Assembly: GCA_031547085.1 (NCBI GenBank)
Contig: JAVBSH010000128.1
Location: forward strand, 39,632 to 103,631
Direction of reading: 5' to 3'
DNA length: 64,000 nt
Source: Bacteroidales bacterium
GTDB lineage: Bacteria > Bacteroidota > Bacteroidia > Bacteroidales > UBA4181
In this document: positions 18,836 through 45,508 of the stretch, in pieces
Position numbering within the stretch: the first letter of the stretch is position 1
How the letters are laid out: each line of letters starts with the position of its first letter
Program-made: the position numbers and the translations under genes
The notes under the pieces: model-generated
Databases searched by the model: none
What the model saw: the letters and a program-made list of their open reading frames with translations, nothing else
What the model was told of the DNA's origin: nothing

Positions 18836-19630
18836 TCAATCAATATTAAACGTCACCCCAATAGTCATCCGGGGCAATTCAACAGGAATCACCTCCTTGT
18901 TGAAAACATCAGTAAACCGGTAATGAGCATGCACCTCGAACCACCCAAACCCAATGCCTGCAAAAGCGCTTGCCGTAAACGGATTAAAAGCGTAACCATT
19001 CCGGTATTTATTTTTAATGGAATAATCGCCGGTTTCCAATTTCGACTTATAGAATCGTCCGTATGACCATTCGCCCTGAACCCCGGCGTCTATGTACACC
19101 CCGTCGGAATTGGGACGCGAACGGTTGCCCGGAAAGATATAGAACCGGTTAAAAACACCCACTCCAAGGTTATTGCTGCGGAATACTTCTTTGTACGGTT
19201 CGGTCGCTGCACCAATCATAGGCTCCGATGCATCCTTCAACCTGTAGTTGTAGAAGGCATATTGCCCCGTCACCCCAATCCCGTACCAACGCGTAGGATG
19301 GAAGCAATAGCGGTAACCCGTATTGAACTGGTACGATTTGCCACTGTATATTTTCAGGTAATCGGCGCCGTTATCGGGAAGCATAAACTCCAACCCGATA
19401 TACCAAGAGGATGTGTGGTAGCGCCTTCTGGGCTTATACTCCTCCTTGTCTTTTTTACGCGTAATTACCGTTTTCGTGCGATCATTGATATCAATTTGCA
19501 CAATGGTGTCATTACCTTCCGTACTTTTCCTGACGGAAAATTCCAGATTACCGATTTTCACCCGCTGCTGGGCCAGTGAAATGCATAAAGGCAAGCAAAT
19601 AAGAAAAATAAAGATAAATATTTTTTTCAT
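18836..19630 (-). CDS. Hypothetical secreted protein, probable outer-membrane beta-barrel (paralog A)
   Basis: Signal peptide ...CISLA|QQ. The composition alternates aromatic and Gly-rich segments. It is clearly paralogous to 19731..20528 (shared ...AHYRFTDVFNKEVIP..L...IG..F C-terminus, YIG(L/V)(E/S)FM(L/V)P, FYNYR(L/M)KD). Confidence 0.5.
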   Translation of the reverse strand: MKKIFIFIFLICLPLCISLAQQRVKIGNLEFSVRKSTEGNDTIVQIDINDRTKTVITRKKDKEEYKPRRRYHTSSWYIGLEFMLPDNGADYLKIYSGKSYQFNTGYRYCFHPTRWYGIGVTGQYAFYNYRLKDASEPMIGAATEPYKEVFRSNNLGVGVFNRFYIFPGNRSRPNSDGVYIDAGVQGEWSYGRFYKSKLETGDYSIKNKYRNGYAFNPFTASAFAGIGFGWFEVHAHYRFTDVFNKEVIPVELPRMTIGVTFNID

Positions 19631-19733
19631 CTGGTTATAATTTTATTTTTTTAAGGTCAGATGGAATGTCCATGGATAATTATTACGGTTGGTGCACGTT
19701 AATGCATGGACATTTCATGGTGATATGGTTTTA
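19631..19733 (-). repeat. Conserved intercistronic element, copy A (second copy at 43046-43180)
   Basis: It fills the whole gap between the two barrel paralogs. By eye it shares blocks with copy B: CTG(G/T)TTATAATTTTAT, TTTTAAGGTCAGATGGAAT, CCATGGATAAT(T/C)ATTACG(G/A)TTGGTG(C/A)AC and CATGG..ATTTCAT. It contains the 10-bp inverted repeat AATGTCCATG/CATGGACATT. Confidence 0.6.
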
Positions 19734-20528
19734 ATGAAATTGGATTCCGATGGACAATGGAGGCAAATCCATTGGTATGACATCCTTATTGAACACATCG
19801 GTAAAACGGTAATGAGCAACAATGGCTATCTTGTTCCATCCCAACCGGACGCAGGCGGATGCATTGAACGGGTTAAAAGCGTAACCGTCGCGGTACTTCT
19901 CTTTGCCGTGCGAATTCGATTTGGTTTTGAAAAACCGGCTGTACGAAAAATCCCCCTGGACACCGCAGTCGATATACAATCCGCTGGTATTCGTGTGTTG
20001 TTTCGCCGGCGCTAAGTAGAAACGGGTATACAAGCCTGCCCCGATATTATTACTCCTGTAAACCTGCTTAGATAAACTGTTTGCCTCGATAGTGTGACCA
20101 ATTACCTCGTTTGCAAATGCAGGACTTTCGGTAAGATCTTTCATCCGATAATTATAAAACGAGTATTGCAAAGTTCCCAATAGCGAAAAATGGCGGGTGA
20201 CACGGTAACGTTCCTGTAAGCCGATATCCAAATGATACGTATTGCCGCCCCATATACGGTAATAATCATCGCTATGTTCGGGAACCATAAAACTGACGCC
20301 GATATAGCAATTCGACCGGAAATAATGGTTTTTGACCTTCTTTTTATCATTATTGTTGGCATTTTCCTTTATCGGTTCGTTGGTTGTGATTTGGAAAAAA
20401 CGGACAACCGTATCATTTCCCTGCTTCCCGAAATTCATTTCCATATTTCCGATTCTCAGACCGGATTGGGCAATCATTGTCCCTGTTGCCAGGAATGCAA
20501 AATATAATATAAAAATAATCTTCTTCAT
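19731..20528 (-). CDS. Hypothetical secreted protein, probable outer-membrane beta-barrel (paralog B)
   Basis: Signal peptide ...GTMIA|QS. Paralog of 18836..19630 (see that entry). Confidence 0.5.
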   Translation of the reverse strand: MKKIIFILYFAFLATGTMIAQSGLRIGNMEMNFGKQGNDTVVRFFQITTNEPIKENANNNDKKKVKNHYFRSNCYIGVSFMVPEHSDDYYRIWGGNTYHLDIGLQERYRVTRHFSLLGTLQYSFYNYRMKDLTESPAFANEVIGHTIEANSLSKQVYRSNNIGAGLYTRFYLAPAKQHTNTSGLYIDCGVQGDFSYSRFFKTKSNSHGKEKYRDGYAFNPFNASACVRLGWNKIAIVAHYRFTDVFNKDVIPMDLPPLSIGIQFH

Positions 20529-20595
20529 GGTATAATGGTTTTGTTATGAGTGAAAGGCAATGCGTTTGATGCTTCTAATTTTATGAAAAATCAAA

Positions 20596-21126
20596 TTATT
20601 TGCTCGATGTCCCTATTTCGCCGTTCATCACGGCATCAATCAGGGTTTTGTCAATTTTACCGGCCAGATGCATCACTGTTAGCGACGAGCTGGCCGAAGT
20701 GATGAATAGCAAGGCTCCTTGACAATCCTTGCAGTCGGGTTTATTGCGTACATATAGTTCGATCCTTTCGCCGGAGTTTTTCACCTTCATGATTTCTTCA
20801 AAATCCGTTTTCACAGCGGCTTGTAATTCTGCTGTAAGCGCTTCGCGATTGGGACGGCCTTTCCCGTTAGCGCCGTCGTTGAGGGTCAGGATACGCAAAC
20901 CTGTGATCTTCGAAATCAGGTCCTGGGTCTTCTTGTCATTGGTTTTGCCGTTTTTCATCATCCCCAGTAGGGCAGGCGAAATAGTGATAGATTCAACACC
21001 TTCCTTTTCCTCGTATTTGTCAAAAATCTTAAGGATAGGATCGTCTCCGCCTTCCTTTTGTGCAAAAGCACCTGTTGGCATACTGATCAACATAATAGTA
21101 ATGAATATGGAAACTACTCTCTTCAT
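20596..21126 (-). CDS. DUF4252 domain-containing protein
   Basis: Signal peptide ...GAFA|QK. IFDKYEEKEGVESITISPALLGMM...ISKITGLRILT...LTVMHLAGKIDKTLIDAVM matches my memory of the DUF4252 family, which commonly follows ECF sigma genes in Bacteroidetes. Confidence 0.7.
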   Translation of the reverse strand: MKRVVSIFITIMLISMPTGAFAQKEGGDDPILKIFDKYEEKEGVESITISPALLGMMKNGKTNDKKTQDLISKITGLRILTLNDGANGKGRPNREALTAELQAAVKTDFEEIMKVKNSGERIELYVRNKPDCKDCQGALLFITSASSSLTVMHLAGKIDKTLIDAVMNGEIGTSSK

Positions 21127-21208
21127 GTGATTATTTTTTTACAATTCTAATCAATATTGGTTGGGCGTAAGCCCGGTTCAAAAATTTAAAGATTCACAAA
21201 ATGATAAC

Positions 21209-21736
21209 TTATTGGATGGAATTGGCTTCCTGAAACTTATTGCCAACTTCTTCCAATTGTTGGAATGCATCGGATATCTTGCCGAATTGTTGCAACGATT
21301 GATTGCCTTCCTGCACTTTCTCGAAAGCTGCCATGCTGTTCCTCGCCTTTTGCATGGAAGCGGCCAGTTGTTGCAGTTTACCTTCGGCCGACTCCATGGC
21401 TGCGGTTTCATCGTAGATGCGATGGCCGTCCACATAATAGGCATATTGGTCTTGACGGAGCGTTTTGGGCAATCCCACCAGGAACAGGATGGCAATACAT
21501 GCAGCAACACCTGTGATGATCGCCCAATTCAACCGAATGGTACGTGTTATCGTCTTTGGGGCAGCCGGTTCCACTGTCCGCTCCCCGGCAAAGAATACGA
21601 ATATAGGCTGGTATGCTTTCAGTGAATCAGGCACGTCCTTTCCTGCAAAGAAACGCTGTAATTCGCGTTCTTCGTCCAACGACGTTGCTCCGTCGAAATA
21701 GCGTTGGAGCAACTCATGTATTTTTTGTTCGTTCAT
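21209..21736 (-). CDS. Putative anti-sigma factor / single-pass membrane protein
   Basis: It overlaps the sigma gene stop by 4 nt. The N-terminal cytoplasmic helix is MNEQKIHELLQRYFDGATSLDEERELQRFFAG, there is one central TM (WAIITGVAACIAILFLVGL), and the C-terminal part is a periplasmic coiled-coil. No zinc-finger anti-sigma motif is present, so the assignment is by position only. Confidence 0.5.
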   Translation of the reverse strand: MNEQKIHELLQRYFDGATSLDEERELQRFFAGKDVPDSLKAYQPIFVFFAGERTVEPAAPKTITRTIRLNWAIITGVAACIAILFLVGLPKTLRQDQYAYYVDGHRIYDETAAMESAEGKLQQLAASMQKARNSMAAFEKVQEGNQSLQQFGKISDAFQQLEEVGNKFQEANSIQ

Positions 21737-22233
21737 ACCTTCATTTGTTTTAAAAGTTCTTCACGTATCTTTTGCCGGGCACGCGACAGGTTGGTTCGCA
21801 CGGCTCCGTCGTTCATTCCGAGTATCTCGCCGATTTCTTCCAACTCATACCCTTCCACATCTCGCAAACGGATCACCATCTGTTGCTGTTCGGGCAGGCG
21901 TTCGATCAAACGCCTCACAAATGCGGCCATATCGGCTTGTTCAACACTCTTGTATGGCGTTTGCTCATGTTGCGTATGGAGGGTTTCGGTCAATTCGGCT
22001 GTTCTGCTGTGCGGCGACCTGACATAATCGAGGCACCGGTTACGCACAGCGCTCATCGCATAAGCTTCCACACTACGCAGGGCATCCAGCTCATTGTGTC
22101 GTTCCCACAATTTTACACCAACTTCCTGGACTACATCTTCGGCCTCGTCCGTTCGCTTGGTATAAGCCAAGGCAAAGCGATACAGCTTCGGGCGCAGATG
22201 TGCCATTAATTGATTAAATCCGGTTTTGTCCAT
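21733..22233 (-). CDS. ECF (sigma-70 family, group 4) RNA polymerase sigma factor
   Basis: 166 aa. Region 2 is EDVVQEVGVKLWE and region 4 HTH is QQQMVIRLRDVEGYELEEIGEILGMNDGAVRTNLSRARQKI. Confidence 0.9.
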   Translation of the reverse strand: MDKTGFNQLMAHLRPKLYRFALAYTKRTDEAEDVVQEVGVKLWERHNELDALRSVEAYAMSAVRNRCLDYVRSPHSRTAELTETLHTQHEQTPYKSVEQADMAAFVRRLIERLPEQQQMVIRLRDVEGYELEEIGEILGMNDGAVRTNLSRARQKIREELLKQMKV

Positions 22234-42634: not shown

Positions 42635-43045
42635 TCAAGACAATAATACGGATAAAAATCCTATGCCAAGAACTATACCTATACGGATAAAATTCTCTTT
42701 TGCAAAACTAGGCGATTTTCTGCGTTTCCACCATAAAGCGGATAAGACAAGTGCCATGTATACCAATCCTGCAAAAAAGATGTACCATCCACTCGTGCCA
42801 TAATGTAATGCAATGAATACTACGCCCATTGTATAAGTTGTAATACTCATTCCGACACATATTTTTGCCAGCGTCATCGGCAGTCCTGTACGTTTTATTC
42901 CAAACAGCGGATACAGGATATACAGAAAAAATAACCCAATCAAGACAATAAATTGAAGTATGGCATAACCGGGTATTTGATTACATATCTGTAATATTCT
43001 TGCCAAAATGAATATACAACCTATTGCGATTTCAAACTTTTTCAT
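42635..43045 (-). CDS. Hypothetical small membrane protein (about 4 TM)
   Basis: 136 aa, almost entirely hydrophobic helices. No family recognised. Confidence 0.5.
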   Translation of the reverse strand: MKKFEIAIGCIFILARILQICNQIPGYAILQFIVLIGLFFLYILYPLFGIKRTGLPMTLAKICVGMSITTYTMGVVFIALHYGTSGWYIFFAGLVYMALVLSALWWKRRKSPSFAKENFIRIGIVLGIGFLSVLLS

Positions 43046-43180
43046 CTGTTTATAATTTTATCTTTTAAGGTCAGATGGAATTAGCTTCGCTGAGCTCCAC
43101 TACGTTCCGGTTCGCCATGGATAATCATTACGATTGGTGAACAGTAAGGTTCATGGCTATTTCATATCAGATATCTTTTT
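43046..43180 (-). repeat. Conserved intercistronic element, copy B (with ~32-nt insertion)
   Basis: It has the same blocks as 19631-19733, plus an insert TAGCTTCGCTGAGCTCCACTACGTTCCGGTTC. Its distal end supplies the last codons and the stop of ORF 43157..43714. Confidence 0.6.
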
Positions 43181-43714
43181 CGTGAATTGCTGCCATAGAA
43201 ACATGTTACTCCCACTGATGTTGATCTCTTTACCATTGTTGCGCAATTCAGTCAAGATATTGTTCAGCAGTTCGTAAGTTTTTATGTCTTTGATAAAGAA
43301 CTGGAACGTTTTGCCGGGGTCATTATCCAATACCAAATAGTTACCCGCTCCTTTCTTCCTGTCGCCATTTCCTAAAAAGCGTCCGGATATACCAGCCATT
43401 TCCTTATAGTCTCCGAAAGAAAACCGGATAGACTTGATGTCATTGCAATCATAAGTTTTTTCAATGGTTCCTTTCTTTGAGACGATATGAATAACATTGC
43501 CAAAAATAACCAATTTACCGGTTACATAGTACCAGGGACATATAAAAGACACTGCCCATAACAGAACACTGCATGCCATCAATACCAAAAAAGGATGGTA
43601 GGGACGAAAGCCATAATAAAGAATCAGCCAGAGGAAGACGCTAAATATTGAAATCCGGCTCAGCCAAAAGAAAATATTGTACTTTACTGTGGAAAACTCG
43701 AGATGAATCTGCAT
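43157..43714 (-). CDS. Hypothetical membrane protein (2-3 N-terminal TM + soluble C-terminal domain)
   Basis: 185 aa. No family recognised. Co-directional with, and 26 nt downstream of, the plug-CTD paralog. Confidence 0.5.
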   Translation of the reverse strand: MQIHLEFSTVKYNIFFWLSRISIFSVFLWLILYYGFRPYHPFLVLMACSVLLWAVSFICPWYYVTGKLVIFGNVIHIVSKKGTIEKTYDCNDIKSIRFSFGDYKEMAGISGRFLGNGDRKKGAGNYLVLDNDPGKTFQFFIKDIKTYELLNNILTELRNNGKEINISGSNMFLWQQFTKKISDMK

Positions 43715-43740: not shown

Positions 43741-44607
43741 TCATTTATTCTTCACTCCTTTTACCATTTTTGTCTGTTTGCCATTATTTACGCTAAAGAA
43801 ATATACACCTGCACGCAAATGTTCCAAAGGAATGGTTTCAATCGGGTTAACGATTTTTTTGGTGTGTACAATAACGCCGTCTTCGGAAAGCACTCTCAGT
43901 ATGCAATTTTCAGCACCTGTGAGCTGCAACGTTCCGGCGAAAGGATTGGGGTAGATTTTCAGGCCGGGGAAAGGATCTTCCGTTTCAGCGAGGTCAACAT
44001 CAGTTTCGATAGCAGGGGCATCTTCGTTTTCCGGTTGTGTAGTCACCAAATCTGACTCTGATGGATATTCTGTTTCGGTCGTGACTGTATTTGTTTCGGA
44101 TTTAACAGAGTATTTGCCGCCTGATTTTGTGACAATGCTAATTACTCCGCCTGCTGCGCCGCGTTCCCCAAATATTGCCAATGCTGAGGCTTCTTTAAAT
44201 ATTGAAAAACTTTTGATGTCCTCGACTTGCAAACGCGTTAAATCGTCTGAAGAACTTTCCATCCCATCAATCAGGATCAGCGGTTGAACGGTTGAAGTTT
44301 CATGAGTACTAGTGAGAAAAATCTGTGTTCCGTCGGTTGTAGTTTGATCAACGGGCCGGGACGAGCTTATTCCCGGGACTCTCCCCCAAAACGTTTGGGT
44401 TAAATTGGATGTCGGCACTTCCAAAACAGGTGCCTTTATTGCTTGGCCGGGGGAAACACTGTTGCTATTTTCATCAACAACAGTGGCATTTTCCTGCGCA
44501 AGAAGTGAAAATGCACAAAATGATAGCACGATTACAGGAATGATGATTGTTTCCAATCTCTTAAAAAGCGCGGTTGCAACAACGAAAGAAAAGAATTGTG
44601 TACTCAT
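43741..44607 (-). CDS. TonB-dependent-receptor plug-like domain protein with T9SS type A C-terminal sorting domain (paralog 1)
   Basis: Signal ...FSLLA|QE. Plug-like block FWGRVPGI...LILIDGMESS...EDIKSFSIFKEASALAIFGERGAAGGVISIVTKSGG. An acidic linker follows. CTD is LKIYPNPFAGTLQLTGAENCILRVLSEDGVIVHTKKIV...LRAGVYFFSVNNGKQTKMVKGVK. There is no beta-barrel. Confidence 0.65.
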   Translation of the reverse strand: MSTQFFSFVVATALFKRLETIIIPVIVLSFCAFSLLAQENATVVDENSNSVSPGQAIKAPVLEVPTSNLTQTFWGRVPGISSSRPVDQTTTDGTQIFLTSTHETSTVQPLILIDGMESSSDDLTRLQVEDIKSFSIFKEASALAIFGERGAAGGVISIVTKSGGKYSVKSETNTVTTETEYPSESDLVTTQPENEDAPAIETDVDLAETEDPFPGLKIYPNPFAGTLQLTGAENCILRVLSEDGVIVHTKKIVNPIETIPLEHLRAGVYFFSVNNGKQTKMVKGVKNK

Positions 44608-44647: not shown

Positions 44648-45508
44648 TTATTTACTTTTTATGCCTTTTACCATTTTTGTCTGTTTGCCATTATTTACGC
44701 TAAAGAAATATACACCTGCACGCAAATGTTCCAAAGGAATGGTTTCGATCGGGTTAACGAGTTTTTGAGTGTGTACAACAACACCGTCTTCGGAAAGCAC
44801 CCTCAGTATACAGTTTTCAGCACCTGTGAGCTGCAATGTTCCGGAGAAAGGATTGGGGTATATCTTCAGGTCGGGGAAAGAATCATCCGTTTCGGTAGGG
44901 TCAATATCGGTTTTGATAGCAGAAACAGTTTCATTTTCCAATTGCGTAGTGTCTAAATCTGGCGCTGCTAGGCTTTCCATTTCGGTTGTGGCTGTATCTG
45001 TTTCGGATTCAACCGAGATTTTGCCGCCATTTTTAGTGGTAATAAGAACAACCCCGTTAGCACCGCGTTCCCCGTACATTGCCGTTGCCGAAGCATCTTT
45101 GAGTATTGAAAAACTTTCGACATCTTCAGGACGTACATGATCAATAGCGCCTTCAACCCCATCAATCAGTACCAATGCTGATGATAATAATGCTGATGAT
45201 GAACAACTACAGTTGATATAAACCTCTGTGCCGTCAGGTTTAGTTTTGTTAGCAGCTTGCATCGAAATTATTCCTGCAACTCTTCCCCCTAACAGTTGGG
45301 ATACAGAGGATATCGGCACTTTCAAACCTGGTGCCGTTATTATCTTTTCGGAAGGAGCAGCGTTGTCATTCCCATTGAGAACATCGGCATTTTCCTGCGC
45401 AAAGAGCGAAAATGCACAAAATGACAACACGATTACAGGAAAGATGGCTTTTTTTGTTGTTTTAAAAAGTCTGGTCATCACAATGAAAGGAAGAACATGT
45501 GTACTCAT
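44648..45508 (-). CDS. TonB-dependent-receptor plug-like domain protein with T9SS type A C-terminal sorting domain (paralog 2)
   Basis: Signal ...FSLFA|QE. Plug-like block LGGRVAGI...LVLIDGVEGA...EDVESFSILKDASATAMYGERGANGVVLITTKNGG. The CTD is nearly identical to that of paralog 1. Confidence 0.65.
   Translation of the reverse strand: MSTHVLPFIVMTRLFKTTKKAIFPVIVLSFCAFSLFAQENADVLNGNDNAAPSEKIITAPGLKVPISSVSQLLGGRVAGIISMQAANKTKPDGTEVYINCSCSSSALLSSALVLIDGVEGAIDHVRPEDVESFSILKDASATAMYGERGANGVVLITTKNGGKISVESETDTATTEMESLAAPDLDTTQLENETVSAIKTDIDPTETDDSFPDLKIYPNPFSGTLQLTGAENCILRVLSEDGVVVHTQKLVNPIETIPLEHLRAGVYFFSVNNGKQTKMVKGIKSK

Follow-up and report, generated by a model that had tools for sequence, protein, structure and literature searches.

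We describe here a family of short, dispersed elements, of which two copies lie in a 64,000-nt stretch of DNA from a Bacteroidales bacterium (GCA_031547085.1, contig JAVBSH010000128.1, positions 39,632-103,631 of the forward strand; hereafter the window). Copy A separates two paralogous barrel genes, and copy B two genes for small membrane proteins. The element sits exactly at ATGAAA, usually the start codon and lysine codon of a gene, and both the membership of the two copies in the family and its insertion at start codons are well supported. The explanation that we favour as a whole, with a probability of about 0.65, is that both copies are members of an extensive Bacteroidota family of non-autonomous insertion elements, each ~90 nt long, that home to ATGAAA.

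The family is widespread. An exact scan for the 18-mer shared by both copies, TTCCATCTGACCTTAAAA, on both strands of 596 Gb (one genome per species) gave matches in at least 117 genome loci, where we estimate about 17 by chance. About 105 of the matches listed are genuine copies with the full architecture of those in the window. Thirteen are coincidences within coding sequences, including all of those in archaea, Patescibacteria, Lachnospira, a Phormidesmis (cyanobacterial) metagenome-assembled genome (MAG) and Brocadiaceae. Among the matches listed, the genuine copies all come from Bacteroidota, except for those in two probably mis-binned MAGs. They are found in Bacteroidales, Marinilabiliales, Flavobacteriales, Cytophagales, Chitinophagales and Sphingobacteriales, and cultured isolates of Algoriphagus, Winogradskyella, Aquimarina, Niabella and Chryseobacterium carry them. 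Typical copies also occur in a MAG labelled Limnohabitans (loci L032, L038, L043, L048 and L056) and in one labelled Victivallales (L116), the latter identical to the Flavobacteriaceae locus L025 over the stretch read; contigs with such labels are probably mis-binned. A covariance model (R1) built from 47 copies recovered 109 copies in the genome loci (100 sources) and 62 further copies in metagenome loci, which had been picked by the tail AATTATAAACAGATGAAA instead of the block and hence represent an independent ascertainment. The same tail is also found without an element upstream (in metagenome loci such as L129, L141, L147, L176, L186, L188 and L193); these may be ordinary gene starts, in which case the tail would mimic the leader consensus native to the organisms.

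The family is apparently uncatalogued. Rfam 15 had no match in the window at gathering threshold and only noise for copy A at E values up to 10. Its one match among 15 copy-bearing loci was a DUF805b RNA (RF02914, 42.3 bits; L071, 1787-1821, minus strand) elsewhere in its locus, unrelated to the element copy of L071 at 2764-2862. BLAST against plasmid and phage collections returned no match to the element, and a scan of viral contigs gave four matches, all coding-sequence coincidences and none a family member. [quoted passage not shown]

The consensus unit consists of ATGAAA, Y, the 5´ arm of a hairpin, a variable inner stem, the loop motif ..CAC.A..G.AATGATTAT.., the 3´ arm, R, TTCCATCTG(R)C and an A-rich tail that ends in ...ACAG and runs into a second ATGAAA. 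The hairpin, P1, pairs the bases just after the first ATGAAA with those just before TTCC; it is a single long-range hairpin with variable inner stems near the 5´ end, and the 3´ part of the element is unstructured and A-rich (tails are 59% A and 5% G across the family). ATGAAA flanks both sides in essentially all copies, at invariant or near-invariant alignment positions, and in most of them the two ATGs lie 86-91 nt apart. One subfamily has a GC-rich hairpin inside the core, between TTCC and ATCTG (metagenome loci L134, L161, L162, L168, L175, L224 and L230), and other loci keep the loop motif and the tail and miss the core (L143, L160, L165, L184 and L231). In the window, the two copies are composed as follows.

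19631..19718, minus strand: copy A, whole unit of 88 nt (5´ ATGAAA through ...CAG), between two barrel paralogues
19713..19718, minus strand: 5´ ATGAAA of copy A, 12 nt past the TAA stop of barrel gene 1 (19731-19733)
19705..19712, minus strand: 5´ arm of P1, TGTCCATG; covariation at 8/8 pairs in the family
19675..19694, minus strand: loop motif CACCAACCGTAATAATTATC (family consensus CAC..A..G.AATGATTAT)
19667..19674, minus strand: 3´ arm of P1, CATGGACA
19649..19666, minus strand: single-stranded conserved block TTCCATCTGACCTTAAAA
19658-19666, minus strand: family-invariant core TTCCATCTG, within TTCCATCTGACCTTAAAA
19631..19648, minus strand: A-rich tail AAATAAAATTATAACCAG, running into the start codon
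19625..19630, minus strand: 3´ ATGAAA, start and Lys codon of barrel gene 2 (open reading frame (ORF) 18836-19630)
43046..43165, minus strand: copy B, whole unit of 120 nt, between ORF 43157-43714 and ORF 42635-43045
43160..43165, minus strand: 5´ ATGAAA of copy B, read through by the upstream ORF
43157-43159, minus strand: TAG, the element's own stop, which terminates the upstream ORF
43152..43159, minus strand: 5´ arm of P1, TAGCCATG
43113..43119, minus strand: 3´ arm of P1, CATGGCG
43081..43112, minus strand: 32-nt insertion AACCGGAACGTAGTGGAGCTCAGCGAAGCTAA, separating P1 from the conserved block
43063..43080, minus strand: conserved block TTCCATCTGACCTTAAAA, pairing with 43040-43048 (pair I1)
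43040..43062, minus strand: A-rich tail GATAAAATTATAAACAG and 3´ ATGAAA, start of ORF 42635-43045

R1 scored copy A at 90.3 bits in the 64-kb window (E about 1e-15) and copy B at 58.3 to 69.5 bits, the lower value being that of the window scan. It found no other copy there, the next match (26.5 bits) being an echo of copy A on the reverse strand. A first-pass annotation of this DNA had aligned the gap between the barrel paralogues (ORFs 19731-20528 and 18836-19630, minus strand) with that between the membrane-protein genes. Both spacers are on the minus strand at those places and share two blocks. The first, CACCAAYCGTAATRATTATCCATGG, lies at 19670-19694 and 43115-43139 and nowhere else in the window, with none expected in shuffles. 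The second is TTCCATCTGACCTTAAAA, followed in both copies by ATAAAATTATAA(C/A)CAG and then ATGAAAAA, as had been described. The similarity does not span the whole gap: it begins at the upstream ATGAAA (19713-19718; 43160-43165), not at the stop of the upstream gene, and in copy B the 32-nt insertion intervenes between the hairpin and the 18-mer. An inverted repeat centred on CCATGG/CATGG had also been described. Its arms exist in both copies, measuring 17 nt with 88% complementarity in copy A when the flanking ATGAAA/TTCCAT is counted (19661-19677 with 19702-19718) and reading GCCATG/CATGGC in copy B (43114-43119 with 43152-43157). The stem sequence varies freely among lineages, and the family does not conserve CCATGG as such. 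Copy A is predicted to fold clearly better than its shuffles (z = -3.9), and copy B, with its insertion, not clearly better (z = -1.2).

Copy B has the consensus start of its subfamily, ATGAAATAGCC (also in L010, L026, L075, L099 and L111). The 3´ end of its insertion is TCAGCGAAGCTAAT, the reverse complement of which, ATTAGCTTCGCTGA, occurs in L010 at the equivalent place, between the 3´ arm of P1 and TTCC; in L026 the near-identical ATTAGCTGCGCTGA occupies that position. Comparison of the three suggests either a further, very small insert that occurs in both orientations or an additional hairpin of variable form.

The placement of the element is best seen from the genes that follow it. In 75 of 106 copies, an ORF of at least 60 aa begins at the second ATG; among random ATGAAA positions of these loci, the share is 28%. 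By construction, the copies are oriented along the transcribed strand. A Pfam scan of ten downstream proteins (among them SIR2, IlvD, HutH (aromatic amino-acid lyase), a response regulator, MsrA, LacI, Ddl, Ugd (UDP-glucose dehydrogenase), ProC and ExbD) gave matches that all begin at profile position 1 or 2, and the 3´ ATG is hence their true start. Clustering of the 70 downstream proteins gave 68 groups unrelated to one another, and a leader specific to one regulon is thereby ruled out. On the upstream side, a same-strand ORF ends within 40 nt in 21 of 72 copies and is separated by a wider gap in 27; the neighbour is a divergent gene in 16, and 8 have no upstream ORF within the locus. The term 'intercistronic' used in the first-pass annotation is apt for the first of these groups and too narrow for the family, in which the constant feature is the start codon and not an operon junction.

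The ORF that begins at the first ATG is mostly 2-12 codons long, is unconserved and usually stops inside the hairpin; no leader-peptide constraint was found across copies, and the distance between the two ATGs is under no reading-frame constraint (31/34/28 copies in the three frames). Every frame contains a stop in 69 of 93 copies. Among upstream ORFs that run into the element, those in the frame of the ATG are not enriched (5, 8 and 3 for the three frames).

Several observations point to insertion. Copies are near-identical within a genome and differ between lineages, as in one Prevotellaceae MAG, where near-identical copies precede different genes at 15 loci. Tandem arrays combine subfamilies, with a TCGAGCATG-type unit beside a TGCCC-type unit (L038, L043, L064 and L092). 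A mixed array is what one would see when new copies settle on the ATGAAA supplied by older ones; local duplication would not give rise to it. Two comparisons of filled with empty sites show insertion precisely at the start codon. Between degV and plsY, the filled site of L012 (also L030 and L069) runs from ATGAAATAA over a 17-nt spacer to ATGTAA, then comes an insert of 88 nt with a new ATGAAA at its end, and CCGGCT... (the rest of plsY) follows. Ten contigs (L246 to L255) have ATGAAATAA, a 20-nt spacer and ATGAAACC (plsY) with no element. PlsY of the empty-site relative is 85% identical and the flanks align with L012 on both sides; the old plsY start in L012 has decayed to ATGTAA. The barrel junction of the window reads TAA, 12 nt, ATGAAA, the element and ATGAAAAAAATATTT, and the orthologous empty site in L120 reads TAA, 18 nt and ATGAAAAAAATATTT, with a barrel 2 that is 58% identical to that of the window. 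The 5´ ATGAAA of copy A is the former start codon, displaced. Empty sites have a single ATGAAA and filled sites have the hexamer at both junctions, which is compatible with insertion beside a fixed 4-5-nt target without a variable duplication, as in IS200/IS605 derivatives, and would also fit site-specific duplication. The earlier suggestion of a mobile or MITE-like insert is borne out with respect to mobility by the hundreds of copies across Bacteroidota, the near-identical copies before unrelated genes of one genome, the arrays and the filled and empty sites. A MITE in the strict sense it is not: terminal inverted repeats are absent, the ends YNNNCATG... and ...TTATAAACAG being unrelated, and the flank is always ATGAAA. 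The inverted repeat is internal, with ~40 nt of conserved, non-complementary sequence 3´ of its 3´ arm.

The barrel genes of the window belong to an operon (18836-22233, minus strand) that encodes an ECF sigma factor, a putative anti-sigma factor, a DUF4252 protein and barrel protein(s). There are two barrel paralogues in the window and in L120 and one in L118 and L121, where the barrel gene is preceded by spacers of 87-100 nt from which the element is absent.

The hairpin P1 is supported by covariation. All eight pairs vary on both sides, the closing pair being UA in 49 copies and CG in 48, and covariation is 0.323 versus 0.118 in shuffles (0/500 reach it). It falls to at most 0.055 when the partners are slid by 1-3 columns and is reproduced in the metagenome set (0.302 versus 0.109). 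The alignments used were fitted to the model and are thereby biased toward the structure; the variety of complementary arms is also seen in an ungapped, anchored count that predates any model. Odd cells comprise 44 G.U, 18 A.C and 102 tandem G.A/A.G, and the excess of G.U over A.C together with the tandem G.A/A.G indicates that the folded strand is the sense strand. In the raw MAFFT alignment the arms were not in register and RNAalifold therefore overlooked P1, a problem solved by the anchored analysis and the covariance model. A candidate pseudoknot between loop AUGAUU and tail AAUUAU was unsupported (77.7% of cells paired versus 76.7% in shuffles).

A second interaction involves the start codon itself. 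CAUCUG in the core is complementary to CAGAUG, formed by the last three bases of the element and the start codon (CATCTG and CAGATG in copy A), and the two are paired in 95-97% of cells in the genome and metagenome model alignments. Compensatory variants occur: CAUGUG/CACAUG (L038, L043, L057, L092 and L101), CAUAUG/CAUAUG (L048) and CAUCAG/CUGAUG (L079). Of 71 unique copies, 72% have predicted folds in which the core pairs with the start codon; the predicted unpaired probability of this codon is 0.12 and climbs to 0.43 upon in silico mutation of the core. For about 20% of copies, copy A among them, the prediction is instead that the core extends P1 by pairing with the upstream AUG.

Of the two hexamers, the upstream ATGAAA is a relic and the downstream one is the working start behind the A-rich leader that the element brings, so that the gene remains intact. 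In the mechanism that we propose, an enzyme encoded elsewhere may move the element via a single-stranded intermediate and may recognise the hairpin and the conserved TTCCATCTG. The latter would be an internal guide and base-pair with the CAG|ATG junction, similar to the pairing of guide and cleavage site in IS200/IS605. In the mRNA, the same pairing would bury the start codon in a 6-bp stem closing an A-rich loop. On the predicted folds, such burial could lower or condition downstream translation. Translational control, another of the first-pass suggestions, is plausible, and translational damping, taken alone, has in our view slightly less than even odds. Guide-directed insertion of a single strand is a step that we infer from analogy, and guide-based mobilisation, again taken alone, is somewhat more doubtful than damping. 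Bolder, and unlikely, is the notion that the element is the non-autonomous form of an undescribed nucleic-acid-guided mobile element, in which a single hairpin and the adjacent guide TTCCATCTG would direct the enzyme to the sequence around ATG AAA, and which would in this way home to start codons and leave a working one in place; because guide and partner co-vary, its choice of target would be reprogrammable in principle. A possible regulatory role gained after insertion belongs to the main explanation.

Several points weigh against this picture. The first sample was chosen by an exact 18-mer, and the conservation of the 18-mer is overstated as a result: in the tail-picked sample only TTCCATCTG(R)C is nearly constant and the rest of the 18-mer varies, and some relatives in that sample lack the conserved block or have it split by a hairpin. 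The start-codon pairing is broken in ~19 of ~100 block-ascertained copies and is therefore not obligatory, and the guide pairing would be explained equally well by a function at the RNA level or at the DNA level. About 29% of copies have no ORF of at least 60 aa behind the 3´ ATG. The comparisons of filled and empty sites are cross-species, with flanks about 80% identical, and they revealed no strain-level polymorphism, excision product or circular junction. Clustering of all ORFs of the 117 8-kb loci showed no recurrent neighbour that could be a mobilising gene, the largest family being present in 11 loci. Finally, the normal layout of IS200/IS605 elements is one hairpin per end with the guide 5´ of the hairpin, whereas here there is one hairpin, with the guide 3´ of it on the structured strand.

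Part of the evidence would also suit an element kept by its hosts, i.e. a conserved cis-regulatory RNA (translational operator, RNA thermometer, protein-binding leader or processing site) copied by duplication or recombination. The covariation of a hairpin on the sense strand with its G.U and tandem G.A cells, the phylum-wide conservation of the loop motif AATGATTAT and the core TTCCATCTG, the predicted sequestration of most start codons and the compensatory changes in their pairing would all be expected of such an RNA. We nevertheless consider it unlikely as the origin of the family, because the downstream genes have no common function and include housekeeping enzymes, copies within a genome are near-identical while lineages differ, tandem arrays mix subfamilies, presence and absence differ between related species exactly at the start codon, and 28 of 106 copies have no gene behind them. 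Mobility of a known class, as an element of REP/REPIN type or derived from IS200/IS605 (PATE-like) that a Y1 HUH endonuclease (RAYT/TnpA) mobilises, is only a little less improbable. A hairpin next to conserved single-stranded sequence as the apparent recognition feature, the combination of a fixed short target with absent terminal inverted repeats, and an internal sequence complementary to the junction agree with that class, but the 5´ GT[AG]G foot is missing, the units measure 86-91 nt and not 20-40 nt, and one long-range hairpin takes the place of one per end. In addition, no gene for TnpA, TnpB or another Y1 protein was found close to the copies within the 8-kb loci, and the repeats of Bacteroidetes subclass 2.6 are unlike the element, CCATCTGAC being absent from the table that lists them (PMC6006769 Table S1).

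The remaining explanations are far less probable. Removal or skipping at the level of RNA or ribosome, by a minimal intron-like element or by translational bypass with matching AUG AAA take-off and landing sites, could make sense of the same ATGAAA at both ends, of a hairpin that begins right after the first AAA, of the internal complementarity to both junctions and of the stop codon that 13 of 93 copies have immediately behind the 5´ ATGAAA. Copy B is one of these, and its clean excision would place both flanking ORFs in a single frame. It is set against this very improbable account that 88 of 103 copies are not entered by any ORF, that the 3´ AUG lies behind a conserved A-rich leader and begins full-length proteins, and that there is no sign of a ribozyme and no Rfam ribozyme match. 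Copy B as a split gene was considered and not supported, as the distant HMMER homologues of its upstream protein (27-29% identity) are 185 and 193 aa long and thus match the ORF in length. Still less speaks for a promoter or some other signal that drives transcription of the gene behind the element: the element lies directly upstream of genes, and copy A has one weak sigma-70-like match, where shuffles would give 1.4. The Bacteroidetes -7 box TAnnTTTG, which the first-pass annotation had also failed to see, occurs in 3 of 109 copies in sense and 2 of 109 in antisense orientation, no terminator-like site was found, and only ~16 nt separate the conserved block from the ATG. The presence of just two copies in the 64-kb window would be in keeping with a chance or local segmental duplication in this one genome, an idea that is practically negligible and refuted by the more than 100 genuine copies in dozens of genomes and six orders, plus the 62 in metagenomes. 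Counting copies and looking for covariation, as had been proposed at the outset to tell these cases apart, gave at least 117 genome loci with TTCCATCTGACCTTAAAA, the metagenome copies found by R1, and a hairpin in which every pair covaries, the opposite of two isolated copies with neither conservation nor structure.

The genes around copy B are of some interest in themselves. Both flanking ORFs (43157-43714 and 42635-43045, minus strand) are orphans that encode small membrane proteins. No close homologues of the upstream protein were found; among 1.84 billion representatives it has the two distant homologues and a repeat match in a 3750-aa protein. Just upstream of this gene pair are tandem paralogues of ~287 aa (43741-44607 and 44648-45508, minus strand), and by Pfam, ORF 43741-44607 has a TonB-receptor Plug and a T9SS C-terminal sorting domain without a barrel, an unusual architecture.

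If confirmed, the favoured explanation would make this a phylum-wide selfish element that has solved the problem of insertion into compact genomes by landing on a start codon and rebuilding it, ATGAAA being the commonest gene start of Bacteroidota. It would also place a structured leader before many unrelated genes, including the housekeeping genes ddl, proC, ilvD and plsY. Since initiation in these organisms is not led by a Shine-Dalgarno sequence, accessibility of the start codon should matter, and the element could be a genome-wide source of variation in translation. Practical uses would include annotation of true starts and strain typing by presence or absence, and the family would account for many 'conserved intergenic' matches. 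The apparent pairing of guide and junction makes the hunt for the mobiliser well defined, with possible value as a tool.

Comparison with known systems brings out what is distinctive. By arrangement, the closest analogue is the mycobacterial MIRU. MIRUs are repeats of about 50-100 bp, oriented with the genes, often between genes of an operon and sometimes in tandem, that preserve the downstream start; they are described as containing small ORFs, the ends of which overlap with the stop and start codons on either side. The present element is likewise short, gene-oriented, found in tandem arrays and followed by a preserved start. It differs from MIRUs in having no in-frame through-ORF (no preference among frames and a relic ORF of a few codons), in its covarying hairpin and conserved core, in spanning a phylum, and in that only 29% of its copies are tightly intercistronic. 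The bypass elements of T4 gene 60 and mitochondrial byp sit inside the ORF that is to be joined; matching AAA codons are shared with them, whereas an entering ORF is lacking in most copies. Classical MITEs (Correia/CREE, ERIC, RUP and the MITEs of P. gingivalis) are dispersed, ~100 bp long and co-transcribed and can alter the expression of neighbours, and the element resembles them in being short, non-coding and present in many dispersed copies (109 + 62). However, MITEs are bounded by terminal inverted repeats, and a DDE transposase determines their target duplications, whereas the ends of the element are unrelated and its flanking repeat is always ATGAAA, not a copy-specific sequence.

Among RNA families of Bacteroidota, FopS/GibS are similar as a multi-copy family that acts at the start codons of target genes. 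They are free-standing small RNA genes restricted to Bacteroidaceae, with their own promoters and a Rho-independent terminator, and are in Rfam (PMC11697453). Identity with them was rejected, since the element is part of an mRNA leader, has no promoter or terminator signal and has no match in Rfam 15.

REP/REPIN sequences with their RAYT are comparable as small non-autonomous hairpin repeats with a conserved single-stranded foot, many copies, no terminal inverted repeats and an enzyme encoded elsewhere. They differ in the GT[AG]G foot, as the consensus of the element contains neither GTAG nor GTGG, in being three times shorter, and in lying after genes instead of at start codons. In a REPtron, copies flank the cognate Y1 HUH gene, and no neighbouring gene recurs beside the element in the 8-kb loci. 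Bacteroidetes have Y1 subclasses of their own (PMC6006769), and the RAYT-associated repeats of subclass 2.6 are GC-rich 24-mers such as GCTAGCGCGAGCGTCCCGCTCGTG (PMC6006769 Table S1); the Bacteroidetes repeats are unrelated in sequence to the element. With IS200/IS605 and PATEs, the element shares a strand-specific structure; a fixed short target without variable duplication, an internal guide complementary to the cleavage or junction sequence and seamless removal would be further points in common. It differs in having the same hexamer at both junctions, and it has no match to the IS605-related RNA families of Rfam. By likely mechanism, derivatives of REP/RAYT and of IS200/IS605 would be the systems closest to it. 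It lacks defining features of each of these and of MIRUs. What is unusual is that the element is placed strictly at ATGAAA starts, that it regenerates the start codon and that it contains an internal complement to this codon which co-varies with it.

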